A DNA stretch of 64,000 nucleotides from Escherichia phage phita32 (PQ758395); one strand, 5' to 3'. Numbered from the stretch's first letter, positions 19,538-33,020 are shown. Numbers and translations: made by a program. The notes: a model not told the origin generated them from the sequence alone.

Positions 19538-19552
19538 GTTTGCAGAATAACG

Positions 19553-19655: not shown

Positions 19656-19674
19656 ATAATGATAACCGTTCTCA
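19656..19674. promoter_or_regulatory. Fur-box-like site 2
   Basis: GATAATGATAAcCgTTcTC matches 16 of 19 positions of the Fur consensus. Confidence 0.3.
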
Positions 19675-20059
19675 TTCTATCTAGCGCCCATCCCCAGTGA
19701 TTGTCTCCCCCGTCACCAGGGCCTGCCGTCCTTTCGATAGGTATATTGTGCCACCTGGCGGGGCCGCTGTCAACACCTTTCAAAAAAAAAAAATTATAAC
19801 CAGGTGCGCCCACTGCCAGGACCTGGCGGGGCCAACCTGGCAGGTCCGCGCTATAAAGTGAACAGCTACAGAAGAGGTACAAAAATGAAAGGTAATGCTA
19901 CTCACCTGGAAAATAGTAATTGATGATACGGAAGCTATCGCCCTGGTCGAGAAGGCTAAAACTGAAGCACCGGAACATAAAGAAGAGTACGAAAAACGGT
20001 GGTGATCTGGCAGGGCGGCGGCAGGTGGATTCTATCATAAAAATAATTTAAAATAATTG

Positions 20060-20088
20060 TTGACAACCGGGGGAGTCCTGCTATTCTT
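20060..20088 (+). promoter_or_regulatory. sigma70-like promoter (TTGACA-17-TATTCT)
   Basis: -35 TTGACA 20060-20065; weaker -10. Confidence 0.4.
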
Positions 20089-20138
20089 ATCCTACAAGGT
20101 GAACAACACCGCACTAACTAGTAAAGAGGATAAAAATC

Positions 20139-20351
20139 ATGAACGCATACGGAATCAAAGTACGTCGCAACACTCGCCAGGTGGTAACCGATCAAGTGGT
20201 TTGCCTGGTGGATGTAACCATCAACAACGGGCAAGGCCTTTATAAATTTCGTCGCGGTCATAGTTATACCCTGCAACAGCTTAACCGTTGCGCCCTGACA
20301 AAAGGTCAGATCAACCACTGGTTTAATAAAAAAATAAATATTGACATGTAG
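20139..20351 (+). CDS. hypothetical small protein
   Basis: ORF with AAGAGGA SD. Confidence 0.5.
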   Translation: MNAYGIKVRRNTRQVVTDQVVCLVDVTINNGQGLYKFRRGHSYTLQQLNRCALTKGQINHWFNKKINIDM

Positions 20352-20369
20352 TCTGAAACAAAATATACT
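20341..20369 (+). promoter_or_regulatory. sigma70-like promoter (TTGACA-17-TATACT)
   Basis: -35 20341-20346 overlaps the upstream stop; -10 TATACT 20364-20369. Confidence 0.55.
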
Positions 20370-20401
20370 AAAAGCACAAAAGACACTAAGAGGATAAAAT
20401 C

Positions 20402-20800
20402 ATGAAAACCACAACCTTTAATTTTGATAATGCTAACTTCTCTTTTTCTGATGTTAAGAACTGCCGCCGTGATCGCGGATTCTACAAGGCCTATAATCTG
20501 GTTGGCCTTGACGATGATAATAATTTGCACGAAGTGGCGGAGATCCGGTACTATGCCGCCGCCAGTGGTAACACTAACTACTGCGTTTTTTGGATACACG
20601 ACAACAAGAACAATAAGTACGGTTATACTGGCGGCAAGGCGAGCGGTCACGGTTATGATAAAGCCAACGCTGCACTTGAAAGCGCATTAAATGCCATGGG
20701 AATCACTGCTAACGGCTGGATCTATGAAGAAGAATTTTTGGCGGCACTTGCTGCCCACCTGGGCTATAAAAAGCACATTGTAACATGCGCCCACGAATAA
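20402..20800 (+). CDS. hypothetical protein
   Basis: ORF with AAGAGGA SD; Gly/Tyr-rich. Confidence 0.5.
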   Translation: MKTTTFNFDNANFSFSDVKNCRRDRGFYKAYNLVGLDDDNNLHEVAEIRYYAAASGNTNYCVFWIHDNKNNKYGYTGGKASGHGYDKANAALESALNAMGITANGWIYEEEFLAALAAHLGYKKHIVTCAHE

Positions 20801-20811
20801 AAAAAAAATAT

Positions 20812-20839
20812 TTGACACGCCACAAAATTTAAGTAGACT
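20812..20839 (+). promoter_or_regulatory. sigma70-like promoter (TTGACA-16-TAGACT) with leader hairpin
   Basis: -35 20812-20817, -10 20834-20839; GGCGGGAAACATCCCGCC hairpin 20849-20866 then CA-rich leader and SD. Confidence 0.5.
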
Positions 20840-20883
20840 ATATACAAAGGCGGGAAACATCCCGCCAACACAGAGGAAAAGCT

Positions 20884-21279
20884 ATGAATAAGAACGTACG
20901 CCGCATCATGAACGAACTGGCAAACGATGAAAAAATTATTGACATGCATTTGGTCAACATTTGCCGCCGTTGTGTAACATACAACAACCGCGCCGCAAAA
21001 GCGCGTGAGATGAACGCAAAAGGCACCTTAAAGCCCTTTCAGGTGGTTGTAAAATCTATAACTAATGCAGCAGGCCAGGCGCATGATCACAACAACGAGA
21101 GCACTAATATTGATCCGTCTTACGTAATGAAACGGATCCGGACTTGCAAGAATAAAGAGCAGGTGTATAACGTCATAGATTGGCTTGATTCCATGGGCGA
21201 CGTGGTTTACAATAGATTTTCTGCAGCTATTGAAATTCAGTTAGACAGGTTGGACGGGAAAGTACTAAAAACTTACTGA
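20884..21279 (+). CDS. hypothetical protein
   Basis: ORF with GAGGAAAAG SD. Confidence 0.5.
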   Translation: MNKNVRRIMNELANDEKIIDMHLVNICRRCVTYNNRAAKAREMNAKGTLKPFQVVVKSITNAAGQAHDHNNESTNIDPSYVMKRIRTCKNKEQVYNVIDWLDSMGDVVYNRFSAAIEIQLDRLDGKVLKTY

Positions 21280-21290
21280 GTTTATTTTTA

Positions 21291-21327
21291 GATGGCCTTG
21301 ACTCCAGGGCCATCAATAAAGTAAACT
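21291..21327 (+). promoter_or_regulatory. palindrome-embedded promoter (GATGGCC-TTGACT..-GGCCATC, -10 TAAACT), copy 1
   Basis: 7-bp inverted arms flank the -35; near-identical copies at 21912 and 25629. Confidence 0.45.
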
Positions 21328-21359
21328 AATCCCAGTTAAGCGAAAAAGGAGGCTTGAAG

Positions 21360-21479
21360 ATGAGCACTACACGCCAGCACACAAAGGTAACTATTATCGT
21401 TTGCATCATTGGTTATATCCTGGCGCAAATGTTGATGGGTAGCGCCAACGGTGTCGCAAAATTTTTCTTAAACTTTTAA
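21360..21479 (+). CDS. small hydrophobic peptide (39 aa, not in ORF track)
   Basis: ATG 21360 with AAAAAGGAGG SD; MSTTRQHTKVTIIVCIIGYILAQMLMGSANGVAKFFLNF. Confidence 0.4.
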   Translation: MSTTRQHTKVTIIVCIIGYILAQMLMGSANGVAKFFLNF

Positions 21480-21507
21480 TTGACAAGCTAACTTAGATCA
21501 GTATACT
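21480..21507 (+). promoter_or_regulatory. sigma70-like promoter (TTGACA-16-TATACT)
   Basis: -35 21480-21485, -10 21502-21507. Confidence 0.55.
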
Positions 21508-21558
21508 AAACACATAAACGGGAAAACTTCCCAGAACACACAAAAGGAGAAAAACACC

Positions 21559-21900
21559 ATGACTACTATGACCGCCGCAGAAAAAGCTATTCAGGTTGCA
21601 GCACTGAAAAAACAGATCGCAGACCTTGAGAACAAGATCGATAACTTTGAAATCGACGAGGACAAGTACGACGAAAACTATGATGAATGGTTAGACGAGA
21701 TCTACGGCGAAATTATGATCGGAAACATTTCTTTTCTTCCGTCGCGTATCCTCAAGGAGCTAGATCCTATCGCTTACCGCTGCGGATTTAGCGACTACAT
21801 CGACAGCCTGGATATTGAGGACGATGAAGAATACCAGGAATTACAGACAGAGTTGGAAGAAGCAAAAGAAGAGCTTGCAGAACTGGAAGAAAACGAGTAA
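21559..21900 (+). CDS. hypothetical acidic coiled-coil protein
   Basis: ORF with AAGGAGA SD; highly acidic C-terminus. Confidence 0.5.
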   Translation: MTTMTAAEKAIQVAALKKQIADLENKIDNFEIDEDKYDENYDEWLDEIYGEIMIGNISFLPSRILKELDPIAYRCGFSDYIDSLDIEDDEEYQELQTELEEAKEELAELEENE

Positions 21901-21911
21901 ATTTATTTTTA

Positions 21912-21948
21912 GATGGCCTTGACGCCAGGGCCATCGATAAAGTAAACT
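21912..21948 (+). promoter_or_regulatory. palindrome-embedded promoter, copy 2
   Basis: GATGGCC TTGACG CCAG GGCCATC .. TAAACT. Confidence 0.45.
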
Positions 21949-21989
21949 TTATACTGTTAACACTGAACTAATACAGAGGAGTTAAAACC

Positions 21990-22235
21990 ATGGCAGCACT
22001 AATCACCAAATACTATGCACCGACCAACACCAAAAGCGCACGCATCTTGGTAAAAGGATTCGGACGTAAAAAGGTTTACACCTGGGATTATGCCTTAGAC
22101 ATGGAAGACAACTACACCAACGCGATGACAGATTTTATTAATGAACTAAATAAACAGATCTTAACCAATTATAAGGTGACCGACATCGCCTATGTTGGGG
22201 AAGGTGGGATCTGTTTTGTCGGTATTGTCAAATAA
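21990..22235 (+). CDS. hypothetical protein
   Basis: ORF with GAGGAG SD. Confidence 0.5.
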   Translation: MAALITKYYAPTNTKSARILVKGFGRKKVYTWDYALDMEDNYTNAMTDFINELNKQILTNYKVTDIAYVGEGGICFVGIVK

Positions 22236-22247
22236 GCTGTTTTTCGG

Positions 22248-22267
22248 TGGCCCTGGTGGCAGGGCCA
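22248..22267. promoter_or_regulatory. variant palindrome TGGCCCTG-gtgg-CAGGGCCA
   Basis: 8-bp arm hairpin/operator followed by TATAAAG; related to the GATGGCC..GGCCATC family. Confidence 0.3.
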
Positions 22268-22309
22268 TCTATAAAGATAGTTTATTAACACCATGAAAGG
22301 AGAAAGTAC

Positions 22310-22663
22310 ATGATCAGTGGGGCTAGTTTTATTATTGGCGCTATTGCTACGGCTTTAATTGTAAACAAGATCCAGGATAAAAAGGAAAGAGGAAGTACCG
22401 ACCTTGCAGAATATCCATTTTGGACATTCAATGATAACGAAGATTATATTGTAAAGTATAAAAATAAAGAAGGTGACCAAGTAACACCGCGACCGATCCC
22501 GGCTTACAAGATGCAGGAAACACTATACCGCTTGGAGGCGGGAGGCGCAAAAATTGTGGACTTTTGGGGATACGATCACACAGATCAGGAAGTTATAAAG
22601 CGCCGTATCCGGGCTATTCAGGCCAATATTGAAGTTAGCAAGGGGGGAATATATGAAGATTAA
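22310..22663 (+). CDS. putative membrane-anchored protein
   Basis: N-terminal helix ISGASFIIGAIATALIVNKI; AAAGGAGAAAG SD. Confidence 0.5.
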   Translation: MISGASFIIGAIATALIVNKIQDKKERGSTDLAEYPFWTFNDNEDYIVKYKNKEGDQVTPRPIPAYKMQETLYRLEAGGAKIVDFWGYDHTDQEVIKRRIRAIQANIEVSKGGIYED

Positions 22664-22850
22664 TTTTGAGAAGATTGTAAAGCGATCTCATGATTCCGAA
22701 GAGCTGCCGGAACGCCGCCAGCGTAACAATAAACTGAATAAGCCAAAAAGATTTGGGAAGATCTGGCGGAATCATTATGATCGTAAATTGCCGGGCCTCC
22801 TTTTGGAACGTGAACGACAGGCGGAACGATACCGCCACAAAGGCAAATAA
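22653..22850 (+). CDS. hypothetical basic protein
   Basis: Start moved from track 22629 to ATG 22653 (AAGGGGGG SD); Arg/Lys-rich. Confidence 0.4.
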   Translation: MKINFEKIVKRSHDSEELPERRQRNNKLNKPKRFGKIWRNHYDRKLPGLLLERERQAERYRHKGK

Positions 22851-22859
22851 CAACCAACG

Positions 22860-22888
22860 CCCCGCTATTGTGCGGGGCTTTTTATTTC
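22860..22888 (+). terminator. rho-independent terminator
   Basis: GCCCCGC-tattgt-GCGGGGC followed by TTTTTATTT. Confidence 0.7.
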
Positions 22889-23008
22889 TATCCCGCCGAT
22901 AGCGCCCCTGGTTGGCCCCACAACGCCCTAAAGGCCCCCTACCTATGCAATCTCCTTTCTTAACCTGAAAACATCGTCAAAGGCCGTTTTAAAGCGTTAA
23001 AAATATTG

Positions 23009-23036
23009 TTGACATCTAAAATATTCTAGATATACT
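23009..23036 (+). promoter_or_regulatory. sigma70-like promoter (TTGACA-16-TATACT)
   Basis: -35 23009-23014, -10 23031-23036. Confidence 0.55.
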
Positions 23037-23071
23037 AATCACATCAAAGCGAGAAGTAAGGAGTAAACGCC

Positions 23072-23341
23072 ATGCGTAAATTGAAAAATTTTGATAAAGT
23101 CGATGTTGTCCTAAATAATTTTTACTACTGCAATAATAAAGCCGTTTGGTGGCGCGATAATTCCACCGATAAGGTTAAGGCGCGCTTTCTCCAAGGGTAC
23201 TGGCAAGGCCGTCCAGTGATTAAAATCCTGGGGCAATTGGTAGCGTTTAAAAATTGCCGCCGTGTTGACGACGTTGAAGAGATTTTAAACATTTTGCGCC
23301 ACAATAATTTAAAAATAGTGTTGACAAGTAAATATCGATAA
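23072..23341 (+). CDS. hypothetical protein
   Basis: ORF with AAGGAG SD. Confidence 0.5.
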   Translation: MRKLKNFDKVDVVLNNFYYCNNKAVWWRDNSTDKVKARFLQGYWQGRPVIKILGQLVAFKNCRRVDDVEEILNILRHNNLKIVLTSKYR

Positions 23342-23348
23342 GTATACT
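23321..23348 (+). promoter_or_regulatory. sigma70-like promoter (TTGACA-16-TATACT) with leader hairpin
   Basis: -35 23321-23326 inside 3' end of upstream gene; GGCGGGAAAACTTCCCGCC hairpin 23359-23377. Confidence 0.55.
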
Positions 23349-23405
23349 TAAACACACAGGCGGGAAAACTTCCCGCCACTAACAAAGAAAATAGGAGAAA
23401 ATATC

Positions 23406-24029
23406 ATGACCACCGTTAACATTACTACAGGTTACAATTTATCTTTCGACGTGCTGACCGACGAACAAAAAGAAAAAGCCGTTGAAATGGTCCGCGAAAG
23501 AGAAGAACACAGCGGGGATAACTTTTTTGCAGAAAGTGTAATTGAATACTATAAAGAGTATGTTTTTCCAGAGTACGGGCTTGAAGATACAGAGGTACAT
23601 TGGTCCGGCTTTTGGTGCCAGGGTGACGGCGCGTCAATCAGTGCTGAAAACGTGGACTTAGAAAAATTCTTGCGTAAAGTCAAGTCTCTGACTAAATTCC
23701 GCTCAATTCGCCACTTGTTCGGCACAATGCATGACGGGGAATTATCAGCCAGTGTTGAACGTGACACATACAGCCGCTATAGTCACGAAAACACTGTAAA
23801 CGGATACATCGATACTACTTGGCTAGACCTAACCGCCAAACAAGAAAACAAAGTGGAAGATTTGGAAGAGCTGATCACCGAGACGGTACGGGAGTTATCC
23901 CGCAAGGTTTACGTAGACTTGGAAGCGGCCTATTTGGAGCAATTCACATCTGAAAACTTGATCGGCCTTATCGAGGCCAATGATTGGCGGTTTGATGTCG
24001 ATGAATATGGTGAGATGACTTTTTCATAA
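23406..24029 (+). CDS. hypothetical acidic protein (207 aa)
   Basis: ORF with AGGAGAAAA SD; no motif assigned. Confidence 0.5.
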   Translation: MTTVNITTGYNLSFDVLTDEQKEKAVEMVREREEHSGDNFFAESVIEYYKEYVFPEYGLEDTEVHWSGFWCQGDGASISAENVDLEKFLRKVKSLTKFRSIRHLFGTMHDGELSASVERDTYSRYSHENTVNGYIDTTWLDLTAKQENKVEDLEELITETVRELSRKVYVDLEAAYLEQFTSENLIGLIEANDWRFDVDEYGEMTFS

Positions 24030-24037
24030 ATAAAGTG

Positions 24038-24065
24038 TTGCAATAACCTAAAAACCTGTTATATT
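24038..24065 (+). promoter_or_regulatory. sigma70-like promoter (TTGCAA-16-TATATT) with leader hairpin
   Basis: GGGGGCAAGACGTTTGCCCC hairpin 24075-24094. Confidence 0.45.
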
Positions 24066-24118
24066 AAAACTCAAGGGGGCAAGACGTTTGCCCCACACAA
24101 AACAAAGAGGAAAACATC

Positions 24119-24499
24119 ATGAAAAACACTACTAAAGCTATTGACACCGTTATGTTTAACCTGGTTACCTTTCGCGAGGATATGAAAGATCTTCCACGTG
24201 AAACAGTGTGCGACCATATCGAAAACTATCGCAAACTAATCAAAGAGTTGCCTTTAAAACGTGACCAGTATGCGGCTAACGCTATGCTTAACGCTATGAT
24301 CAAAAAGATGATCCAGTGTGATTTAACTCTGGCCTATGATTATGCAGGTGGTCGTTTTGCAGTATACAATCGGCCCGTGCCTGGTATGAGCACCACCGAA
24401 GAATTGCACGCGCTCAATCTAAAACAAGACGTGTGGGATAGTATGCCCCGCGTGGTGGTGTGGGCAGAAAGCGGAAAGATTTACGGCGATAATTTTTAA
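24119..24499 (+). CDS. hypothetical protein
   Basis: ORF with AGAGGAAAA SD. Confidence 0.5.
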   Translation: MKNTTKAIDTVMFNLVTFREDMKDLPRETVCDHIENYRKLIKELPLKRDQYAANAMLNAMIKKMIQCDLTLAYDYAGGRFAVYNRPVPGMSTTEELHALNLKQDVWDSMPRVVVWAESGKIYGDNF

Positions 24500-24509
24500 T
24501 CAGGTAACA

Positions 24510-24538
24510 GGCGGCGGCATATTTGCCGCCTTATTGTT
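24510..24538 (+). terminator. probable rho-independent terminator
   Basis: GGCGGC-atattt-GCCGCC then TTATTGTT. Confidence 0.55.
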
Positions 24539-24566
24539 AAACAGAACTGTAAAAGAGGTACATAGA

Positions 24567-24926
24567 ATGGAATTTATTATTCTGACTGTATTAGTTGCCT
24601 TGTTCAACGCCTGGATCGCTGGCAAGGTAGGCAGATCCGCTTTCTTATGGTTTATTATATCTATTTTCCTGGGAGTGGTTGCAACTATCATATTGGTTAT
24701 CCTTGCAATTGTTGACAAAGGTAATAATAGAAAGGGTAAAGTATTTTCCGACCTGTATGACGCACAAACGTTCGTCAACGCCTATTATGGTGATCTCCCG
24801 GTATCCCTACGCTGCAGCCTGGCACAACAGGTTTTTGATGAAGCTAAAACCAGAGATCAAGCCCATGAGATATGTTTAACTGAGGCGGATCGCCTATTTG
24901 AGAGGAATAGAAAATATGTGGGCTAA
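24567..24926 (+). CDS. putative membrane protein (two TM helices)
   Basis: Start moved from track 24534 to ATG 24567 (AAGAGG SD); helices IILTVLVALFNAWIAG and FLWFIISIFLGVVATIILVILAIV. Confidence 0.5.
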   Translation: MEFIILTVLVALFNAWIAGKVGRSAFLWFIISIFLGVVATIILVILAIVDKGNNRKGKVFSDLYDAQTFVNAYYGDLPVSLRCSLAQQVFDEAKTRDQAHEICLTEADRLFERNRKYVG

Positions 24927-25161
24927 CCGTTTAAATAACTCCGCGCTAATTAATCCCTTTAGTGAAGATTTGAAGCCAGCCGCCTGGCGTGATGGATTCA
25001 ATACCGAAGGATTTATTTTCAGGCCTGATCTTGAGGAATTTTATAACAATGGATCGAACAACGACAGAGATAATTTTTCTTGTGATGTGCGTAGCGATGG
25101 TACTCCTGGGGGCCATTGCAAACCACATCACTACTACCAGGGGGAAAGGGGGAGACGATGA
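24916..25161 (+). CDS. hypothetical protein (uncertain)
   Basis: ORF with GAGAGGAA SD; overlapping alternative-frame ORF 24989..25174 makes the assignment ambiguous. Confidence 0.25.
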   Translation: MWANRLNNSALINPFSEDLKPAAWRDGFNTEGFIFRPDLEEFYNNGSNNDRDNFSCDVRSDGTPGGHCKPHHYYQGERGRR

Positions 25162-25277
25162 CAACCAAGGATAAGCCCCGCACCGATAAGGCGCGCCGGG
25201 TTATGGTATGGCTTGAGATCATCGCCCTTGAAATATTGCTAGGCGTAGGGATGTACTTTATCGCTGTAAGTAACTAA
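25158..25277 (+). CDS. small membrane peptide (39 aa, not in ORF track)
   Basis: ATG 25158 with AGGGGGAAAGGGGGAG SD; MTTKDKPRTDKARRVMVWLEIIALEILLGVGMYFIAVSN; terminator follows. Confidence 0.4.
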   Translation: MTTKDKPRTDKARRVMVWLEIIALEILLGVGMYFIAVSN

Positions 25278-25282
25278 GAACG

Positions 25283-25310
25283 GCCCCCGATCATGGGGGC
25301 TTATCTTTTT
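25283..25310 (+). terminator. rho-independent terminator
   Basis: GCCCCC-gatcat-GGGGGC then TTATCTTTTT. Confidence 0.7.
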
Positions 25311-25332
25311 AAAAAATTTCCCTTCCAGGGTG

Positions 25333-25361
25333 TTGCAATCCGGTCCGCAATATGGATAATA
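25333..25361 (+). promoter_or_regulatory. sigma70-like promoter (TTGCAA .. GATAAT) with leader hairpin
   Basis: GGGGAGCTAATCCCC hairpin downstream; same architecture at 26149. Confidence 0.45.
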
Positions 25362-25416
25362 ACAATCAACGGGGAGCTAATCCCCACCAACACAAAAACC
25401 AGAAAGGAGAAACAAA

Positions 25417-25617
25417 ATGAGCAACAATATCCGCGTTATTAACTTCAAAAAAGAAGAAAAAATTGCCGTGCTGATTGACGGTCAAGAAATCTTCAAGGGC
25501 TATTATGAAGATCATCAAACGGCGATTAGTATCACTCGCGTGATCGGTTACCATAATTTCTACCCCCAAGGCGCTGAGGCAGCGGTTAAACGAATCAAAG
25601 AGATTGTAGGCCTGTAA
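25417..25617 (+). CDS. hypothetical small protein
   Basis: ORF with AAAGGAGAAA SD. Confidence 0.5.
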   Translation: MSNNIRVINFKKEEKIAVLIDGQEIFKGYYEDHQTAISITRVIGYHNFYPQGAEAAVKRIKEIVGL

Positions 25618-25628
25618 ATTTATTTTTA

Positions 25629-25665
25629 GATGGCCTTGACTCCAGGGCCATCAATAAAGTAAATT
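25629..25665 (+). promoter_or_regulatory. palindrome-embedded promoter, copy 3
   Basis: GATGGCC TTGACT CCAG GGCCATC .. TAAATT; near-identical to 21291 copy. Confidence 0.45.
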
Positions 25666-25707
25666 TTAATCGTGATAAAATAATCAGTGCAAAAAGGAGT
25701 AATGATC

Positions 25708-26007
25708 ATGTTCATACCCGCCAATAATCTTTATTTCTTTGATGGTCAAATCGTAGACGGTGTGGAGGTGGAGATCACCGGGTGCCCTGGTGGTCAGGTT
25801 ATGACTTTCCGGAATAATGCCTTTGATGATTCTCATATCGTTATGAGAATGGAAGTTAGTAAGCTAGATGATAAGAAAACATTGATTGACTATTCCGTCA
25901 AAGATCATCCAGACTACCACATGATCTATGGTGATTTGTGCATTGTTGACCGTGACAAGGTGGGCGGCATTGTGATCGCTATTGTGAACGATGTTTTCTC
26001 TGTATAG
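25708..26007 (+). CDS. hypothetical protein
   Basis: Start moved from track 25687 to ATG 25708 (AAGGAG SD 8 nt upstream). Confidence 0.5.
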   Translation: MFIPANNLYFFDGQIVDGVEVEITGCPGGQVMTFRNNAFDDSHIVMRMEVSKLDDKKTLIDYSVKDHPDYHMIYGDLCIVDRDKVGGIVIAIVNDVFSV

Positions 26008-26065
26008 TTCCGGTAAATGATGCAAAATAAGGCCCCTAGCAGGGCCTGCAGCGATATAATCACAT

Positions 26066-26100
26066 AAAGGCCATGCAACCGCATGGCCTTTATTATTTTG
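26066..26100 (+). terminator. rho-independent terminator
   Basis: AAAGGCCATGC-aacc-GCATGGCCTTT then ATTATTTTG. Confidence 0.6.
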
Positions 26101-26148
26101 GCGTTACAGCGGCCCCCAAGGTGCTTAAAAAATTTTTTAAAGAAGTAC

Positions 26149-26177
26149 TTGCATCAAGCCCTACAATATGGATAATA
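26149..26177 (+). promoter_or_regulatory. sigma70-like promoter (TTGCAT .. GATAAT) with leader hairpin
   Basis: GGGGGCGGCCCCC hairpin downstream. Confidence 0.45.
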
Positions 26178-26232
26178 GGACGTGTCGGGGGGCGGCCCCC
26201 AATCATTAACCGGATAGATAGGAGTTAAAATC

Positions 26233-26517
26233 ATGGCTATTGTTACCGTTGGCGATGTAGTAGAAATGGAAGCAAAATACTTAAAAGCGGGTATGCATAT
26301 CCTACGGAATGATCAAGAGTTACTATTAACGATGGTCGACTATAATCCCGGCCAGGATTATCCAAGCATCGACTACTTTTTTGAGTATGTTGATGAAGAG
26401 TTGAAAGAGGATGAGGCCTATTGCGGTGAGTTCTGCAACTTCTTTTGTCCTGATGAGGTTGTAAAGGTTATTTATCAACCTGGCGTAGCTTTCCCGCTGC
26501 ACGCTATCAATAAATAA
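26233..26517 (+). CDS. hypothetical protein
   Basis: ORF with AGGAG SD. Confidence 0.5.
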   Translation: MAIVTVGDVVEMEAKYLKAGMHILRNDQELLLTMVDYNPGQDYPSIDYFFEYVDEELKEDEAYCGEFCNFFCPDEVVKVIYQPGVAFPLHAINK

Positions 26518-26582
26518 ACCTGGCGGGGCCGAAAAGGCCCCTACAGCATAAAATCATAAAAAATAAAGAGAGGCAAATCATC

Positions 26583-26816
26583 ATGATGGAACAAATTAAA
26601 CGCGCCGAGGCTATTAATGGCAATGTGATCTATTTTGTTAGCAATAACGAAAAAGGCGTACCATATGCAGCGGTAATAGTGCAGCCTGACGGCGATTATT
26701 GGTTTACTGTATACGGATCTTATTCTTTCGGGCGTCCGGTGCATGATAGAATTTTAAAAGTAGCTAATCCAACCGGGAAGAATATCACAGCAGAAAAATT
26801 TTTTGAAAATAGTTGA
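26583..26816 (+). CDS. hypothetical protein
   Basis: ORF with AGAGAGG SD; GGGGCCGAAAAGGCCCC hairpin upstream. Confidence 0.5.
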   Translation: MMEQIKRAEAINGNVIYFVSNNEKGVPYAAVIVQPDGDYWFTVYGSYSFGRPVHDRILKVANPTGKNITAEKFFENS

Positions 26817-26840
26817 CATGACCGTATAAGACTGTAGTAT
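26813..26840 (+). promoter_or_regulatory. sigma70-like promoter (TTGACA-16-TAGTAT) with leader hairpin
   Basis: -35 overlaps stop of upstream gene; GGGGGCAAGCCCC hairpin 26851-26863. Confidence 0.55.
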
Positions 26841-26889
26841 ATAAATCAAAGGGGGCAAGCCCCACCAACCACAAAGAGGATAAAAAATC

Positions 26890-27069
26890 ATGGCTATTAT
26901 TGCAAAGACCGAGATTTTAGGTTTAGATTCTATTCTCCTGGCATACGAGGAAGCTATAGAAATGTATGTGGTTTCCTATGGTGAGTATATCCGTGAATAT
27001 GAATCTATTGATCTAGCTTTTGAATGTTATATTCACCAGGTAAATAAGGCATATGATGATTATCGTTAA
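26890..27069 (+). CDS. hypothetical small protein (59 aa, not in ORF track)
   Basis: ATG 26890 with AAGAGGATAAAAAA SD. Confidence 0.4.
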   Translation: MAIIAKTEILGLDSILLAYEEAIEMYVVSYGEYIREYESIDLAFECYIHQVNKAYDDYR

Positions 27070-27151
27070 AATAGTTTGACAACAGTCAACAATCTGGTAA
27101 AGTGTACTACATAGCGCGGGAATACTTCCCGCCATTAATGAGGGTAATTTA

Positions 27152-27298
27152 ATGAAAACTTTCAACGCAACGGCCTCGACAATTGGTTATATTATTACAG
27201 TACAAGCCGTGGATCTGGTAGCAGCAGCAAACAAGATTAAAAAGATGATTCCGCCAGGCAGTGAATTTTCCGTTTGGGAAGTAAAAAATAAATCTTGA
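27152..27298 (+). CDS. hypothetical small protein (48 aa, not in ORF track)
   Basis: ATG 27152 downstream of GCGCGGGAATACTTCCCGCC leader hairpin and GAGGGTAA SD. Confidence 0.35.
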   Translation: MKTFNATASTIGYIITVQAVDLVAAANKIKKMIPPGSEFSVWEVKNKS

Positions 27299-27322
27299 CG
27301 ATAATTTGTTATCTGATAGAAT
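27295..27322 (+). promoter_or_regulatory. sigma70-like promoter (TTGACG-16-TAGAAT) with leader hairpin
   Basis: GGGCG..CGCCC hairpin 27335-27358. Confidence 0.5.
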
Positions 27323-27382
27323 GTATTTCGTAGGGCGGGGAAATAAGGCAACGCCCCACATCAACCGGAAGAGGAAAACAAG

Positions 27383-27619
27383 ATGAGTATTGCGACAATA
27401 TTAACCGCTGTTAAAACCGCTGAACGTTCCGGCCTGCAAGTTGAGATTATAGATCAACCAGGTGGCGATCTCCTTGTCCAAGTTTACCCGCCGAAAGTAG
27501 GGGATGATTATTATTGGTGTTATTCTGATACGTTCGAACAAGTAGACACGAAAGCAATAACCGCCTTTATTTTAAAAGCCGTTGAAGAAAATAACTTGCA
27601 CAATAACGTCAATCAATAA
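27383..27619 (+). CDS. hypothetical protein
   Basis: ORF with AAGAGGAAAA SD. Confidence 0.5.
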   Translation: MSIATILTAVKTAERSGLQVEIIDQPGGDLLVQVYPPKVGDDYYWCYSDTFEQVDTKAITAFILKAVEENNLHNNVNQ

Positions 27620-27673
27620 ACCATAAGCGAAGTGGTAACGCCCCATTAAACGCAATAGAAAGAGGATAACTAC

Positions 27674-27778
27674 ATGAAACAGAAATTAATTGATGCGGTG
27701 ATCCTGGTTATTGCCCTAGGTATTGGCCTGATTGCAACCATGGCTAATATGATCTTGTCTTCCAACGGTATCGGATAA
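27674..27778 (+). CDS. small membrane peptide (34 aa, not in ORF track)
   Basis: ATG 27674 with AAGAGGATAA SD; MKQKLIDAVILVIALGIGLIATMANMILSSNGIG. Confidence 0.35.
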   Translation: MKQKLIDAVILVIALGIGLIATMANMILSSNGIG

Positions 27779-27787
27779 GGTGGGCAA

Positions 27788-28003
27788 ATGATCACCAACA
27801 AAACAGGCAAAACAGAATTTTTACGCAACTTGCAGATCGGCAAGCCTGAGATCTGGTATTGCACTAAAACACCACGTGACGAAATGAAAGACTTCACCGC
27901 CACGCTGCAACGGGTGAAGATATCTATCACACAGAAAAAGGCCTTACTAGTGGTGGAAGGTGAGATCCCCCAAACCGTTGTTATAGTTGAGCGTACAGCA
28001 TAG
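27788..28003 (+). CDS. hypothetical protein
   Basis: ORF with AAGGTGGG SD. Confidence 0.45.
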   Translation: MITNKTGKTEFLRNLQIGKPEIWYCTKTPRDEMKDFTATLQRVKISITQKKALLVVEGEIPQTVVIVERTA

Positions 28004-28094
28004 TTTAATTTATACAGATACCTGAAAATTAACCAACAAAGCATAAACAGGCGGTTACCGCCGCCTTAAACGTAGCAGAAAGAGGATAGACACA

Positions 28095-28379
28095 ATGAAA
28101 AAGATGATCGCAGTGGTTTCCCTGGTTGTTGGACTTAATGCGCCTGTAATGGCTAAAGAGCTGGCAAAAGAGGTTGATCTAACGGATATCCATGCCGTCA
28201 ATCAAATCGGGGTTACTTATCGCTTATGCCTTGCCGCTAAAACTTTTAATGACGGCACAACAGAGTACTACGGATTCGAGGGTATCCGGTGCGGTGAGCT
28301 TGCTCGCGACCTTAAGGAAGATCCAGACCTGGAAGATCTGCCCATCACCGTAAACGGTAAAGCTTACGTAGACCGTTAA
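28095..28379 (+). CDS. putative secreted/periplasmic protein
   Basis: N-terminal signal-peptide-like MKKMIAVVSLVVGLNAPVMA; AAGAGGATAG SD. Confidence 0.5.
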   Translation: MKKMIAVVSLVVGLNAPVMAKELAKEVDLTDIHAVNQIGVTYRLCLAAKTFNDGTTEYYGFEGIRCGELARDLKEDPDLEDLPITVNGKAYVDR

Positions 28380-28381
28380 CC

Positions 28382-28522
28382 ATGAGAAAGATAATCATCA
28401 CCTTGGGGATTGTGGTAGCAATATTGGCGCTCTTTCCCCTTATGGTTAGATATGTGCTGATACGTGCTGTTCTAGTGGTCAGCGATCTGGTGTTATATAT
28501 ATATATTAACTTACTGTTTTAG
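28382..28522 (+). CDS. small hydrophobic peptide (46 aa, not in ORF track)
   Basis: ATG 28382 directly after upstream stop; MRKIIITLGIVVAILALFPLMVRYVLIRAVLVVSDLVLYIYINLLF. Confidence 0.3.
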   Translation: MRKIIITLGIVVAILALFPLMVRYVLIRAVLVVSDLVLYIYINLLF

Positions 28523-28718
28523 GTGCGATAATGACCACTGATGAAGCTGTAAAAGTGTTGGCGGTATTGAGATAACATAATCAGACAAAAGTTATAAACG
28601 ATCCTGATTATGTTGACTCAAAGCGTGAAGATGAGACATTGACCGCAATAGGGATTATTCAAGAATTGCTAAAGCGCATGACAGAGAAAAACCGACCTGA
28701 CTACATAGGGGGTAAAAT

Positions 28719-29030
28719 ATGATCGCTATTACGCCAACCGTTTTAGATTGGTATCGGCAACGCATAGCGCTTCCGCTGGCTATCTTCAAAGATGCGGAAG
28801 CAAAACAACGCCGGATCTCAATACATGAGATCATCAACCTTAACGCTGGAGGCACACCATACCGTCCAGGACCTGGCCGTGAGATGGACAATACGTTAGC
28901 GATCCTGAAGATACGCCGTAAACGGTCCTCCCTTACGCTGGACTCATTACACACAATGCAGTCTCCGTTCCAGGTGACCGGGAAACGGATCGCCAGGTCC
29001 TGGACAAAGGCCAATGATCGGACCGTATAA
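28719..29030 (+). CDS. hypothetical protein (uncertain; lies in GC-rich repeat-containing segment)
   Basis: ORF with AGGGGGTAAAAT SD on the array strand; region carries CCAGGACCTGG / CCAGGTCCTGG inverted motifs and could be non-coding. Confidence 0.3.
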   Translation: MIAITPTVLDWYRQRIALPLAIFKDAEAKQRRISIHEIINLNAGGTPYRPGPGREMDNTLAILKIRRKRSSLTLDSLHTMQSPFQVTGKRIARSWTKANDRTV

Positions 29031-29117
29031 ATAAAAAGTGTTTTGGTACTGATTTTGGGGTTGACTTGTTCGGCCCCTTTTGCTATTCTTATTAAACGGG
29101 CGGCACTTGGGAACAGG

Positions 29118-29140
29118 GGGAGACAATCACCGGGCCTGCC
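29118..29140 (-). repeat. GC-rich 23-bp element (inverted right copy)
   Basis: Plus strand GGGAGACAATCACCGGGCCTGCC is the reverse complement of 19553-19575. Confidence 0.45.
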
Positions 29141-29165
29141 TGTCATATAAGAACTATAAAAACCT

Positions 29166-29194
29166 TTGACATCTGCCATGGGGTGAGGTAACAT
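29166..29194 (+). promoter_or_regulatory. sigma70-like promoter (TTGACA-17-TAACAT) with leader hairpin
   Basis: GGGGGCAAAAGTGCCC hairpin downstream. Confidence 0.5.
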
Positions 29195-29249
29195 TTATCT
29201 TGAAGGGGGCAAAAGTGCCCACACAACAACCAGGAGAGAGGAAAACACT

Positions 29250-29522
29250 ATGTCAAGCTGGATTAATCAAGAAGTCGAATCACGTTTTAATGCTATTTGG
29301 GATCTCATCGAAAAAGAGGACGGAACATCAAGCCCCTACCTCAACAATTTGGAATTCCATTTTGTGGAAGCGATGAACGCAGAACATGATCACGAAGGTG
29401 GCGCGGATGAGTTCGCTAAAGGTTATGGCTTTAACAATGCCAACGAAATGATCGAGGCGGTAGTACTCCAGGCTGAGGAAGATTATCAATTAAAAACTCT
29501 TGAATTCTGCCGCCGCAAGTAA
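29250..29522 (+). CDS. hypothetical protein
   Basis: ORF with AGGAGAGAGGAAAA SD. Confidence 0.5.
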   Translation: MSSWINQEVESRFNAIWDLIEKEDGTSSPYLNNLEFHFVEAMNAEHDHEGGADEFAKGYGFNNANEMIEAVVLQAEEDYQLKTLEFCRRK

Positions 29523-29582
29523 TAAGATAATGACACGGGCCGAAAGGCCCACTAATCAAGATCACATAGAGAGGAAAACATC

Positions 29583-29846
29583 ATGAAACGCATCGATCAG
29601 CTTAAAGTAGTTCAACATATGGCTTACCGTATCCTTGAAGTTCAAAAAGGCAGCAAAAAAGAAGTTTGTGAAAAAGCCTATAAAATTTTCACCCGCAAAA
29701 AGGACGACTGGATGTTACGCCAGACTAAAAAGGACGATATCTTGGGATACTTGGAAGAAGAGATCCGCCTTGCCGAGCAAGAAGAGATCCGCCGTGATGA
29801 AGCAGAATATCAGGCAAGTTGGGAATACTGGATGAATAACAAGTAA
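29583..29846 (+). CDS. hypothetical protein
   Basis: ORF with AGAGAGGAAAA SD; GGGCC-GAAA-GGCCC hairpin upstream. Confidence 0.5.
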   Translation: MKRIDQLKVVQHMAYRILEVQKGSKKEVCEKAYKIFTRKKDDWMLRQTKKDDILGYLEEEIRLAEQEEIRRDEAEYQASWEYWMNNK

Positions 29847-29907
29847 TACAGCAAGCCATGCAACCAGGGCGAAAGCCCCTTGATTCTGAAAAATAATGCT
29901 ATCCTTA

Positions 29908-29936
29908 TTGACAAGGATCGGCAGTTTTGCTATATT
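29908..29936 (+). promoter_or_regulatory. sigma70-like promoter (TTGACA-17-TATATT)
   Basis: -35 29908-29913, -10 29931-29936. Confidence 0.55.
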
Positions 29937-29983
29937 CTTTTTCAGAAGGAAGTTGTAAGAAAATTATCTAAGAGGTAAACACC

Positions 29984-30403
29984 ATGAATATTAAATCTAA
30001 CAATCCCGCATACAGCTTTGATAACGCTTTTTGTCACGGCCCAGCCGCAAAAGGTTTTGAAATTGATGGTAAACTGGTTATTGTGAATGTTGACGGGGAA
30101 GAGGTTGCAGTATATCCGGTGGCAGACGTTAAAAGCCGTTTACAATGCCGCATTGATGTTACCGCATATCAGCTTGATCCGGTCCGCGTAGTTGCCCTGG
30201 TCCTGGAGGAAGAAATCAAAGCGATGCACCATAGTAACAGGTTTATTGGTGACGCGCAGGATAATATGAAGGTGTGCCGTTATAAAGTTAATGAAGTGCT
30301 TAAAGAATATGGATTTAAGGATCTGATGATCAAACGTGATGAAAAATTTCGTTATCGTAACGACCTGGCAAATCGAATCTATGAAATATACGAATCATTA
30401 TAA
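29984..30403 (+). CDS. hypothetical protein
   Basis: ORF with AAGAGGTAAA SD; last gene of the rightward array. Confidence 0.5.
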   Translation: MNIKSNNPAYSFDNAFCHGPAAKGFEIDGKLVIVNVDGEEVAVYPVADVKSRLQCRIDVTAYQLDPVRVVALVLEEEIKAMHHSNRFIGDAQDNMKVCRYKVNEVLKEYGFKDLMIKRDEKFRYRNDLANRIYEIYESL

Positions 30404-30421
30404 TTTTTTAACTGAATTATC

Positions 30422-30448
30422 AAGGGGCTTAAAGCCCCTTTCTTTTTG
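30422..30448 (+). terminator. rho-independent terminator
   Basis: AAGGGGCTT-t-AAGCCCCTT hairpin then TCTTTTTG. Confidence 0.7.
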
Positions 30449-30449
30449 T

Positions 30450-33020
30450 CTCCTCTTTTCCTACCACAAACGGCCAAGCCTGGCAAGTGGAATAATTGAC
30501 TAGCCAGCAATTACCAACACTGTACAAACATACATGTAAAATAGCTATTGCATAATATTTCATTGTGTGGTAGCAGGGCCATTTTTACCCGCTTTTCCTT
30601 CCAAAACTGCATGTAATTCCACTATTGCACAAAATTTAACCTGATGCACAATATCTCTTTCTTGTCAACAACTAAAAATCTTTATAAGTCATACACTTAC
30701 ATAACCACAAAAGCGTGTTCTACGTGAAAAATCGGGTATAACTATAGCCACTAAATTCCAGAATTCACGTAGCGTCACCATTCTATAGCCCGCTAAGTAT
30801 TTATTCCGACCATAGAATAACGGAATAGTCAATACCTGCATAAAATAATTATTCGTGTAAACTGCATAACATAAATCAGCTAGGGTGTCAACATTTTTCG
30901 TAAACAGCTTGAAATTATCACGGTGAGTTATCATAAGCAGATAAATCTTTAGTCGTCTAATGTTTACTGTACGTTACTATACTAACTGAAATCATTAGAT
31001 GACTAAGAGAAAGATAAGAAATCATTAACAATGCAATTGTTTTATTCGTAACAATAAGGCAACTATGCAAACGAATGGCATGGCGCGACGGAGTCGCGAC
31101 ATAATATAAAAGCAGTAACCATCACCCCCGTGATAGTTTGTCTGCAAACTATTAATCAGATCATAGTTGCCTTGTATTTAGTTAATCATGACATAAACTC
31201 AGGCATAGCCTTCGTCTCGAGGATGTTAACAAGCAAGGCAACTATAGATCTGCTAATAGTTGCCCTGCTTTTATATTATGTCATAGAAACACCCGAAGGG
31301 GTGACCAAAGGTCACCTGGCATAGCCAGTGAAAGATTATTAACTTGCTAATTGTCAACTTGTTGGCTGTTAGCTTGTCAATTGTAAACTAGTTAATTGTT
31401 ATCATGCAAACGAATGGCATGGCTTATCATCTATGCGTGAACTATCCAGGCGTAAACAGTCTATGTGGGAACAATCTATACGTGAACAGTGAAACATGAA
31501 ATAATAACAGTCGTTATTGTGGCGTATTGTGCTGCAGTATGTCATATTGTGTCAGACAAGTTTTTCTCCTCTTTGTCAAGTGCTGCATGAAAAATTTACA
31601 ATCTTGTATGGTAGCATTTTGCGGCCCTGTTTACATTCAGGAATGTATGTATAATCCTTGTTGTGTGGGCGTTTAGACGTCTGGACGGTCAGAAGTCTGC
31701 AGGTTAATATCTAATCTATTGGCTGCTAACTATATCCCCCACAAATAATAAGAAATATAATTGTTATATGTGTAAACCGTAACTCATGTTATCAATCCCT
31801 GTATGTATCGCCAGTGGTGCGCATAATGGGTATTATGTTAAATTGCCCGTAATGATAACTATTCTCACAATGATAGGTATTCTCATTCACCCCACAAGAT
31901 AGGTTGCAAATGTTGTGCCACTGTGTGAACGGCCTCACCTATTAATTTGCCTCACTGCCTCGATATTTGAGAATTATTATAAGAATGAAAAGTATTCCCA
32001 TTTCGTCCGCCTGGCAGCACTCCAGTCGCTACCGGCTCCTGACAGGGAAGCACTCCTGTAGGACAAGCACAAAATCGTGGTATAACTGGACCTGTTCAGA
32101 TATTTCTGGCTGGCTCTTCAGGTCTGTGTGGGAAAAGTCAACCTCTCTGGCGGGGCAGGGGATCATGACGGGAAAATTGCAGGTCAATTAAAAAATTTAC
32201 GTGGTGTATGAAGCGCTCTTCAGGTAAGGCATGTATTATGGGATGAAACCCTCTTCAGGCAATGATATTTGTGGGTGTGATATTTGCTGGAAAGCCAGAT
32301 ATGACGGGACTCCCGTCGGGGCAGGGGTAGTACAGACAGGGAAAATATGGGGATGTAGTTGGGGAAATTGATCAGACAGGTAGAGTATGGAATATGTTAC
32401 AAGTATGTTAACTATGGAGGGTGAATATCTGTAGGATTTGTGTGTAAAATCAAAGACTTAAGTGGTGTTGTGGTATTTTCTATAAATAATTCAAGTTTAA
32501 TAGGTAATATTTGTCTCTATCCGCTTTGTGTGGTAAACAGATTCAGATGAGATTGGTTTACAAGTGTATACATAATATACAAATTAAAGATACAAGAAAC
32601 CCCCCTCCCCCTTCAGCTACCATTCACCTTTTCCTCTGACTGGTACTTAAACACTTATTCAGACTCTTCAGGTTATCACCCATATATCATATGGCAGTGA
32701 CTGGTGTCCTCCGGCCCCTCTTTCGTCACCCGTCCGCTTCGCCATGCTAATGCCATAGCCAAATGTTCGGTTGTTCACCCTGTTCACTCAGGTGTATCTC
32801 CATACCCCTTCAAACCGAAGAGAACAGAAAACCCGAATTACTCGGTAAAAGAAAAGAGAAGAACTTAATTTTATCAGGATAGGCAAGAATGTCAAGGCAT
32901 GACTGCTCACTAAACAAGCAAACAGTCATGTGTGGTAGGTAAGTGATTGTGGTGGTAGGAAATTTAGTTGAAAGATGTGTTATAGGTGCTTCCAGCACTT
33001 TAGCCGGGCAACTAATTGTG
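30450..33020. other. 2.6-kb ORF-free, repeat-dense region between convergent gene blocks (candidate origin/regulatory or ncRNA locus)
   Basis: No ORF of 60 aa or more except one weak hit; repeat families GGCAACTAT/ATAGTTGCC (x4, 31050-31280), CTATRYGTGRAAC direct repeats (31431-31490), CAAACGAATGGCATGGC (x2), CTCTTCAGG (x4-5), GGGGCAGGGG (x2). Confidence 0.5.

Follow-up and report, generated by a model that had tools for sequence, protein, structure and literature searches.

What is transcribed from a dense array of small genes, and what purpose do the products serve, is the question raised by positions 20,060 to 30,448 of a 64,000-nucleotide (nt) stretch of Escherichia phage phita32 (PQ758395), hereafter the window. 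An earlier reading made from the sequence alone (the sequence-only reading) had described about 30 small accessory genes at this locus, nearly every one with its own near-consensus promoter, and had proposed a host-takeover or anti-defence island. The analysis presented here indicates that the array probably forms the distal and hyperplastic portion of an rV5-like phage's long leftward transcription unit, a portion in which 29 non-core small genes are served by a battery of strong promoters for the host sigma-70 RNA polymerase and by cassettes that resemble the promoter-early stem-loop units (PeSLs) of T4-type phages.

A nucleotide comparison with phage records identifies the window as an rV5-like coliphage (a myovirus of the genus Vequintavirus, Vequintavirinae). 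The 10.4-kb array matches 256 phage records, and the best full-length matches are Vequintavirus genomes with 91–93% identity. It is syntenic with open reading frames (ORFs) ORF196 to ORF164 of rV5, which lie on the reverse strand in that phage. In the rV5 genome paper, genes 10-1-238-164 were proposed as one transcription unit, and 33 sigma-70-type promoters were predicted genome-wide (Kropinski et al. 2013, PMC3606486).

20060–30448 (+), the array as a whole, 29 small genes in short predicted transcription units (homology, codon conservation)

The ORF listing contains about 30 small + strand ORFs within the array, 29 of which match PHROG families, every family being of unknown function. ORF 25293–25442 has no PHROG match and is unannotated in most relatives. 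When the array genes are compared with six related genomes, the identity at codon positions 1, 2 and 3 is 0.953, 0.976 and 0.830, respectively, a pattern which indicates real genes with purifying selection on their proteins. The products have a median length of 87 amino acids (aa), with 26 of 29 at or below 131 aa, and include four hydrophobic peptides of 34–46 aa, one protein with a signal-peptide-like N-terminus and seven proteins with an isoelectric point (pI) of 4.1–4.5. Both the gene count and the product profile given in the sequence-only reading (mostly under 130 aa, membrane peptides, a signal-peptide protein and acidic proteins) are thus borne out.

Conservation of the predicted promoters

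Promoter sites were accepted at a minimum of 10 of 12 matches to TTGACA-N16-18-TATAAT, with dinucleotide-preserving shuffles as the null. By this measure the array has 13 near-consensus sigma-70 sites, all of them on the + strand (0 on the − strand), compared with 2.04 ± 1.36 in the shuffles. Class A comprises 12 sites, namely the 11 of these 13 that lie outside genes and a 9/12 site at 24038 that shares the cassette; the two sites within genes are excluded.

20060–20087 (+), promoter TTGACA-16-TATTCT, TGn, rV5 P195A
20341–20369 (+), promoter TTGACA-17-TATACT, rV5 P195, upstream stop codon inside the spacer
20812–20839 (+), promoter TTGACA-16-TAGACT, rV5 P194
21480–21507 (+), promoter TTGACA-16-TATACT, rV5 P192
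23009–23036 (+), promoter TTGACA-16-TATACT, rV5 P186
23321–23348 (+), promoter TTGACA-16-TATACT, rV5 P185
24038–24065 (+), promoter TTGCAA-16-TATATT, TGn
26813–26840 (+), promoter TTGACA-16-TAGTAT, rV5 P174
27076–27103 (+), promoter TTGACA-16-TAAAGT, TGn
27295–27322 (+), promoter TTGACG-16-TAGAAT, TGn, upstream stop TGA within the −35
29166–29194 (+), promoter TTGACA-17-TAACAT, rV5 P168
29908–29936 (+), promoter TTGACA-17-TATATT, TGn, rV5 P164

Across relatives, these 12 sites show 99.5% identity in the −35 hexamer and 91.9% in the −10 hexamer, but only 79.1% in the spacer, which is about the level of third codon positions. The retention of the hexamers while the spacers drift indicates that the predicted promoters are under selection and that the hexamers are functional. 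On sequence grounds, this constraint argues against inactive promoters in a region read through from one upstream promoter.

Besides the 12 class-A promoters, the inventory has a single composite terminator/promoter and three elements of a second type (class B) with weaker 9/12 hexamers, so that approximately 15–16 of the 29 genes have a predicted promoter of their own. The claim that nearly every gene has one is therefore not sustained; the remaining genes are coupled or stand behind a hairpin only. Promoters that overlap the stop codon of the preceding gene, as the sequence-only reading had noted, are observed at several sites, with the stop codon in or directly before the promoter at 20341, 21480, 23321, 26813 and 27295. 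Nine of the array promoters (P164, P168, P174, P185, P186, P192, P194, P195 and P195A) and four terminators (t164, t177, t181 and t184) are already listed in Table S4 of the rV5 paper (PMC3606486).

The array had also been described as unlike the rest of the window, and this is correct in part. The median intergenic gap is approximately 74–80 nt compared with 23 nt in the upstream block, although five junctions are coupled or near-coupled (gap of at most 9 nt) and four gaps contain a hairpin but no promoter. A 16-nt spacer is present in 8 of the 13 array sites versus 4 of 38 elsewhere in the window (Fisher p = 6e-4), and the A/T content upstream of the promoter is 0.82 versus 0.60–0.64. Strong co-oriented promoter-like sites as such are, however, not confined to the array: 17 are found in 1–19000 (+), where about 2.6 are expected, and 21 in 32800–64000 (−), where about 4.6 are expected. 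A rule-based comparison, which replaced a covariance model of the cassette that was dropped when variable stem lengths aligned poorly, restricts the cassette type to 20–30 kb of the window. The sites outside the array form a different class: their spacers are mostly 17–18 nt, their −10 is TAYNAT, the A/T-rich tract is missing from their upstream side, and most lack a leader hairpin.

Cassettes, hairpins and terminators

The elements of a cassette follow a set order: the stop codon of the upstream gene in an A/T-rich tract, TTGACA, a spacer mostly of 16 nt, a TATACT-like hexamer, a GC hairpin, an A/C-rich leader, a Shine-Dalgarno site and ATG. The A/T-rich tract upstream of the −35 is putatively UP-element-like. 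In 8 of the 12 class-A cassettes, a GC-rich leader hairpin (−5.5 to −14.6 kcal/mol, frequently with a GNRA-type loop) begins approximately 10–13 nt after the −10 and is followed by an unstructured A/C-rich stretch, a strong Shine-Dalgarno site (AAGAGGA or AGGAG) and ATG.

20849–20866 (+), leader hairpin GGCGGGAAACATCCCGCC, −14.3 kcal/mol, loop probably inverted relative to relatives
21519–21533 (+), leader hairpin CGGGAAAACTTCCCG
23359–23377 (+), leader hairpin GGCGGGAAAACTTCCCGCC, −14.6 kcal/mol
24076–24094 (+), leader hairpin GGGGCAAGACGTTTGCCCC
26851–26863 (+), leader hairpin GGGGGCAAGCCCC
27116–27132 (+), leader hairpin GCGGGAATACTTCCCGC
27334–27356 (+), leader hairpin GGGCGGGGAAATAAGGCAACGCCC
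29207–29220 (+), leader hairpin GGGCAAAAGTGCCC
26525–26541 (+), hairpin-only intergenic element GGGGCCGAAAAGGCCCC, promoter-less
28050–28062 (+), hairpin-only element GGCGGTTACCGCC, entire hairpin inverted in EduardKellenberger and FV3
29537–29550 (+), hairpin-only element GGGCCGAAAGGCCC, GNRA loop, extra gene at this site in rV5 and EduardKellenberger

The leader hairpins have no U tract and are distinct from the six canonical terminators in the block. No Rfam family reaches its gathering threshold in the array, and relaxing the cutoff to E = 1 adds just two hits below threshold. The terminators, terminator-like hairpins and composite unit of the array are located as follows.

22859–22878 (+), intrinsic terminator, GC stem and T run, after the gene resembling T7 gp1.1
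24509–24531 (+), terminator-like hairpin, rV5 t184
25282–25301 (+), terminator-like hairpin, rV5 t181
26064–26093 (+), intrinsic terminator, rV5 t177, loop AACC here and GGTT (inverted) in relatives
29057–29089 (+), composite terminator/promoter, hairpin and TTTTG that includes the −35 TTGACT, then TATTCT
30422–30440 (+), intrinsic terminator closing the array, rV5 t164

The class-B element is a 55-nt repeat that is present in four copies, all between genes. It folds into an extended hairpin of approximately 20 bp (−21 to −30 kcal/mol, z = −5.9 to −7.4), in which upper and lower stems of about 10 bp each are separated by a 2/3-nt internal loop. Its upper stem and loop contain TTGAC(T/G), 18 nt ahead of a TAAACT-like hexamer.

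21276–21330 (+), class-B copy 1, TTGACT then TAAACT
21897–21951 (+), class-B copy 2
22231–22285 (+), class-B copy 3, hexamers lost, hairpin whole (−30.5 kcal/mol)
25614–25668 (+), class-B copy 4

Copy 3 retains its hairpin without the hexamers, its orthologues exhibit a compensatory C-G to U-A change, and in copies 1, 2 and 4 the loop is the sole part that varies among seven genomes, which together indicate that the structure itself is selected. The U-rich 5′ flank pairs with the A-rich 3′ flank, and the element is therefore not an intrinsic terminator. RNase III signals between the early genes of T7 are commonly described as an upper stem, an internal loop and a lower stem of about 20 bp in total, and the class-B elements resemble them in form: a stem of about two helical turns, an internal loop and a position between cistrons. 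The element may be an RNase III-type processing site, a protein-binding palindrome or a PeSL-style attenuator.

A further non-coding motif, GGGAGACAATCACC(G/A)G, occurs in three copies at 29118–29146 (+), 19547–19575 (−) and 19693–19711 (−). Together they make up an inverted repeat (29 nt, 93%) on either side of most of the array, with the + copy just 3′ of the composite terminator/promoter, and the conserved motif is also present in all Vequintavirus loci examined and in ESCO13. Tested as a structured RNA, it has weak RNAalifold support, no covariation and no Rfam match; it may be a site bound by a protein, or else a small RNA. Directly 5′ of the array, 18880–20060 (approximately 1.2 kb) is apparently non-coding and contains three imperfect tandem copies of a unit of about 65 nt (19219–19404) as well as a − strand promoter-like site (19773–19745).

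Mosaicism and likeness to PeSL cassettes

Compared with two flanking 10.4-kb control segments, the array is covered to at least 80% by 55 records, whereas the controls are covered by 108 and 109. Its best identity is 93% versus 97% for the controls, and each record matches at 1.8 places versus about 1.0. Both the divergence and the mosaicism of the array thus exceed those of its neighbours, and the accessory, variable character that had been ascribed to this block is evident from these values.

Pairwise comparison with eight phages gave 15 distinct breakpoints, of which 13 avoid gene interiors and are located at cassettes or gene ends (binomial p = 8e-6). Several junctions coincide with the −35, with the stretch from the −10 to the hairpin, or with the Shine-Dalgarno/ATG. 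The locus of O157 typing phage 4, a partial genome with a different left flank, was left out of the comparison. MiataMamis carries a 566-bp three-gene insertion exactly at the −35 of the 23009 promoter, and FV3 has a mosaic breakpoint at the 26813–26840 promoter. The left edge of a replacement hot spot maps to 27113–27123, after the −10 but before the hairpin of the 27076 cassette, and the right edge to the following Shine-Dalgarno/ATG; the hot spot holds two genes in the window, one unrelated gene in JLBYU08 and naam, and none in rV5. Single-gene insertions or deletions are observed at 26000–26020, 28723–29078, 29551–29577 and 29853–30416.

Exchange extends beyond the genus, as single ORFs are held in common with Stephanstirmvirinae phages at 88–92% nucleotide identity in a shuffled order. 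In the one case that was aligned in detail (26890–27069 versus "cardinal"), the homology runs from about the start codon to just past the stop, and the flanking cassettes differ. Additionally, two clear and one probable hairpin inversions with preserved stems are found among relatives (20849–20866, 26064–26093 and 28050–28062), the alternative forms being a loop of AACC or GGTT and, for a whole asymmetric hairpin, GGCGGTTACCGCCGCC or its reverse complement GGCGGCGGTAACCGCC. Inversions of loops and whole hairpins indicate that the inverted repeats rearrange as DNA.

This organization is close to that of the PeSLs of RB49 and phi1, which consist of a strong sigma-70 promoter, an A/T-rich upstream tract and a stem-loop with G/C runs, and which extend from the stop codon of the preceding gene to the Shine-Dalgarno site and start codon of the next (Arbiol et al. 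2010, PMC2839356). The position of the stem-loop defines PeSL subclasses: in the spacer, overlapping the −35 or −10, or upstream or downstream (PMC2839356). Known in RB49/phi1, T4/PST and KVP40/nt-1, PeSLs cluster in hyperplastic ORFan regions and mediate modular shuffling; promoter activity, terminator activity and mini-circle formation have been demonstrated in RB49 and phi1, with a terminator/attenuator role for one RB49 stem-loop (PMC2839356; Comeau et al. 2014, PMC4122927). The RB49 cassettes, read directly, have the order TAA-AAAGTTG-TTGACA-stem-loop-TATAAT or TATACT, CA-rich leader, GGAGAA and ATG, with similar gap sizes.

Like PeSLs, the cassettes of the array are intergenic units of approximately 65–90 bp with a stop codon in an A/T tract, sigma-70 hexamers, a CA-rich leader, a Shine-Dalgarno site and ATG; they are located among small ORFans in a variable region, and indel or replacement junctions fall within them. 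The position of the stem-loop varies here too, being downstream of the −10 in 8 of 12, overlapping the −35 in class B and at 29057–29089, and overlapping the −10 in one ESCO13 cassette. However, the stem-loop lies in the spacer in the RB49 cassettes that were read, whereas the transcribed leader is its commonest position in the array. Since the window is from a Vequintavirus and not a T4-type phage, the cassettes are termed PeSL-like, not PeSL sensu stricto. One product, encoded by 29250–29522, is 36% identical to RB49 ORF266, and in RB49 that ORF stands behind a PeSL of the terminator-plus-promoter kind.

In the Phapecoctavirus ESCO13, the early region (440–8360) has the pattern TTGACA-N16-TAnnnT-GTATYACRTAGGGCGG-hairpin in approximately 20 of 30 gaps. 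The ESCO13 cassette (TTGACA-N16-TAnnnT-GTATYACRTAGGGCGGCAATGGTGCCGC) is more stereotyped and is a clearer case than the window of a promoter for every small gene. A scan of viral contigs for the ESCO13-type hairpin retrieved no more than 10 stretches, five of which lie on contigs about 150 kb long.

For this locus in rV5, the type phage, promoters and terminators were partly predicted already, in a genome-wide treatment; the main text and Table S4 of that paper do not describe a composite cassette, the 55-nt repeat or a link to breakpoints (PMC3606486). The array is a tidy, real instance of a known design and not a new system or mechanism, and most of its promoters were already predicted in rV5.

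Products, surroundings and rival explanations

The genes of the array are as follows, with the basis of the assignment in brackets where one is recorded.

20139–20351 (+), 70 aa, basic, phrog_7119 (PHROG)
20402–20800 (+), 132 aa, ORFan, only three protein clusters, all on contigs (132–139 kb) the size of rV5-like genomes
20884–21279 (+), 131 aa, basic (PHROG)
21360–21479 (+), hydrophobic peptide, 39 aa (PHROG, composition)
21559–21900 (+), 113 aa, pI 4.1, conserved core SRILKELDPIAYRCGFSDY (family and structure model)
21990–22235 (+), 81 aa (PHROG)
22310–22663 (+), 117 aa, hydrophobic segment at the N-terminus (PHROG)
22653–22850 (+), 65 aa, basic, Pfam Phage_1_1, T7 gp1.1-like (Pfam)
23072–23341 (+), 89 aa, basic (PHROG)
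23406–24029 (+), 207 aa, acidic, largest product (structure model)
24119–24499 (+), 126 aa, also in Stephanstirmvirinae ESCO13 and cardinal at 70–75% nucleotide identity (PHROG)
24567–24926 (+), membrane protein, 119 aa (PHROG)
24916–25161 (+), 81 aa, translationally coupled (PHROG)
25158–25277 (+), membrane peptide, 39 aa, translationally coupled (PHROG)
25417–25617 (+), 66 aa (PHROG)
25708–26007 (+), 99 aa, acidic, start codon inferred (PHROG)
26233–26517 (+), 94 aa, acidic (PHROG)
26583–26816 (+), 77 aa, a single gene in common with Justusliebigvirus "cardinal", 92% nucleotide identity
26890–27069 (+), 59 aa, acidic, a single ORF in common with "cardinal", 92%
27152–27298 (+), 48 aa, not in rV5, replaced in JLBYU08 and naam, ESCO13 gene about 90% identical
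27383–27619 (+), 78 aa, acidic, presence/absence pattern as for the 27152–27298 gene
27674–27778 (+), membrane peptide, 34 aa (PHROG)
27788–28003 (+), 71 aa (PHROG)
28095–28379 (+), 94 aa, N-terminus signal-peptide-like (PHROG)
28382–28522 (+), membrane peptide, 46 aa, other sequence in JLBYU08 and MiataMamis (PHROG)
28719–29030 (+), 103 aa, basic, pI 11.2, not in rV5, EduardKellenberger, MiataMamis or FV3 (PHROG)
29250–29522 (+), 90 aa, acidic, the RB49 ORF266 homologue
29583–29846 (+), 87 aa (PHROG)
29984–30403 (+), 139 aa, not in FV3, in ESCO13 at 84% (PHROG)

Pfam searches of 30 ORFs give a T7 gp1.1-like assignment as the sole result (22653–22850, E = 1e-10); this gene overlaps the preceding one (22310–22663) and is translationally coupled with it. 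T7 gene 1.1 is an early gene, and the gp1.1 family itself has no known function. The earlier statement that no product could be assigned a function thus holds apart from this one family assignment. No product matches a structural or housekeeping family in Pfam and PHROGs (30 ORFs) or in NCBIfam (the ten largest), NCBIfam and PADLOC searches of the ten largest products yield nothing above noise, and sequence searches of the PDB with four proteins and two family profiles found nothing. The 207-aa protein (23406–24029) has homologues down to 27% identity, and its model (predicted local distance difference test, pLDDT, 87) has no convincing PDB fold match. The 113-aa protein (21559–21900) belongs to a family found mostly on metagenome contigs, and its model (pLDDT 89) retrieves only generic helical or helical-hairpin folds. 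The labels "YeeU-like antitoxin", "acetyltransferase" and "phosphonoacetaldehyde hydrolase" in the JLBYU08 record were rejected, with no Pfam or NCBIfam support.

The 28719–29030 gene and its downstream terminator form a presence/absence cassette among Vequintavirus genomes. The gene has nucleotide matches of 76–84% in Pectobacterium and Enterobacter phages and appears to move across host genera.

With respect to the surroundings, the + strand arm (1–31 kb) contains a DNA polymerase gene, which appears to be interrupted by a group I intron at 9016–9251 (+) (Rfam RF00028, 63 bits). The intron lies at the 3′ end of ORF 6602–9031 and upstream of ORF 9667–10323, and in related records the stretch is labelled as two parts of a DNA polymerase together with an HNH endonuclease. 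The − strand arm (approximately 33–64 kb) carries nucleotide-metabolism genes, and no transfer RNA genes were found in the window. Between the convergent arms, 30450–32800 (about 2.3 kb, GC 0.38) is without convincing genes and contains an 18-nt perfect inverted repeat (31098–31115/31265–31282), with the maximum of the cumulative GC skew nearby; it may be the "non-coding" box of the rV5 genome map. Among the GenBank records that match the array, 23 are named "Campylobacter phage", 21 of them with Campylobacter jejuni given as the host; two listed records of this kind are approximately 91.6% identical to the array, and such host labels look doubtful for rV5-like coliphage genomes.

If the array is such a battery of PeSL-like cassettes, the unmodified sigma-70 RNA polymerase of the host would fire the near-consensus, UP-element-like promoters soon after DNA entry, without phage factors, and would produce many short mono- to tri-cistronic mRNAs early in infection. 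A 5′ stem-loop is able to protect an E. coli mRNA; the 5′-proximal hairpins would probably stabilize these transcripts and may also attenuate read-through. The CA-rich leaders and strong Shine-Dalgarno sites would favor efficient translation, and the stem-loops together with the six true terminators would insulate neighbouring units and partition the block, and the expected result is that small membrane, acidic and basic proteins directed at the host are made in a burst. Their mutual resemblance would also let the cassettes serve as patches of homology for the gain, loss and swap of ORFs within Vequintavirus and with Stephanstirmvirinae, as PeSLs do in T4-type phages.

Several observations weigh against this interpretation. 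Roughly one gene in two lacks its own promoter, a convincing leader hairpin is missing from 4 of the 12 class-A promoters, and relative to promoters in the rest of the window leader hairpins are only marginally in excess (p = 0.053). The lack of a U tract leaves a terminator or attenuator role of the leader hairpins without sequence support. Breakpoints at gene ends may also be expected from selection against disrupted genes, in which case the cassettes would be permissive rather than causal. The layout is common to PeSLs of Straboviridae (T4-type) and to the cassettes of this Vequintavirinae phage, but homology of the cassette sequences is not demonstrable, and nothing relevant on transcriptomics or anti-defence work in rV5-like phages was found in the literature searched. 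A stronger version, in which the units of Vequintavirinae (rV5-like) and Stephanstirmvirinae (phAPEC8-like) constitute a shared, active and loosely integron-like gene-cassette exchange system, with hairpin-targeted movement of single ORFs from one phage subfamily to another, possible mini-circles, hairpins marked as recombinogenic by their loop and whole-hairpin inversions, and the invariant palindromic class-B elements as recognition sites for a phage protein or RNase III that add a regulatory layer, is rather doubtful.

The cassette architecture would be compatible with the view that the small proteins mainly inhibit bacterial immunity (restriction-modification, CRISPR) and are made before defences act, as this concerns the cargo and not the layout. 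The block is indeed accessory and variable; strong host-type promoters precede its genes, the small products are acidic, basic or membrane proteins without structural or housekeeping family matches, and the block shares clustered, variable small genes of unknown function and presumed early expression with anti-defence islands. However, the profile and structure searches (Pfam, PHROGs, NCBIfam, PADLOC, PDB sequences and folds, with two proteins modelled) yielded no match to anti-restriction, anti-CRISPR or other defence-related families, the two confident models have no informative fold match, and no known anti-defence gene anchors the locus. Furthermore, Vequintavirinae are reported to be "exceptionally susceptible" to restriction-modification and seem to be without effective protection (BASEL study, PMC8594841), which argues against effective anti-restriction genes. 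The sequence thus neither supports nor excludes an anti-defence function, and as the main role of these proteins it is a tentative proposal, somewhat unlikely at present.

It is less probable still that the promoter-like sites are not independently used and that the array is a read-through operon, with hairpins as RNA processing or stability signals and class-B elements as T7-like RNase III sites. The four gaps with a hairpin and no promoter would fit such an operon, as would the gene group 24567–25277, which is promoter-less behind a terminator-like hairpin, and the class-B elements, with stems of about 20 bp, an internal loop, no U tract, one hexamer-less copy and G-U pairs that fit the + strand RNA. 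The early regions of T7 and T4 likewise have host-polymerase promoters before small non-essential genes, and a gp1.1 family member is common to T7 and the array; T7, however, uses few clustered promoters and one long transcript that is then cut, whereas the array has many internal promoters. The near-invariant −35 hexamers beside spacers that drift like third codon positions are hard to explain unless the sites are promoters, all 13 sites lie on the coding strand, and six canonical terminators stand within the block. RNA processing and independent promoters are, moreover, not mutually exclusive. An annotation artefact, with hexamers arising from A/T-rich intergenic composition and small ORFs over-called, could draw on the A/T-rich intergenic DNA and on the unmatched ORF 25293–25442; it is refuted by the strand-specific excess of sites over the shuffles and by conservation, that is, the contrast between hexamers and spacers and the coding-type codon-position pattern, and 29 of the ORFs match phage protein families.

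The probable organization as PeSL-like cassettes would mean that this type of "mobile regulatory cassette" reaches beyond the T4-type phages to two further large coliphage groups that are widely isolated for therapy and biocontrol. The 12–16 candidate early promoters and their transcription units provide a map to guide transcript mapping, the cassettes mark natural "landing pads" for the engineering of rV5-like phages, and 29 conserved small proteins are defined for host-takeover or anti-defence screening. More broadly, the arrangement suggests a general solution in which host-type promoters, leader hairpins and standard ribosome sites insulate accessory genes and allow them to be swapped without disturbing their neighbours.

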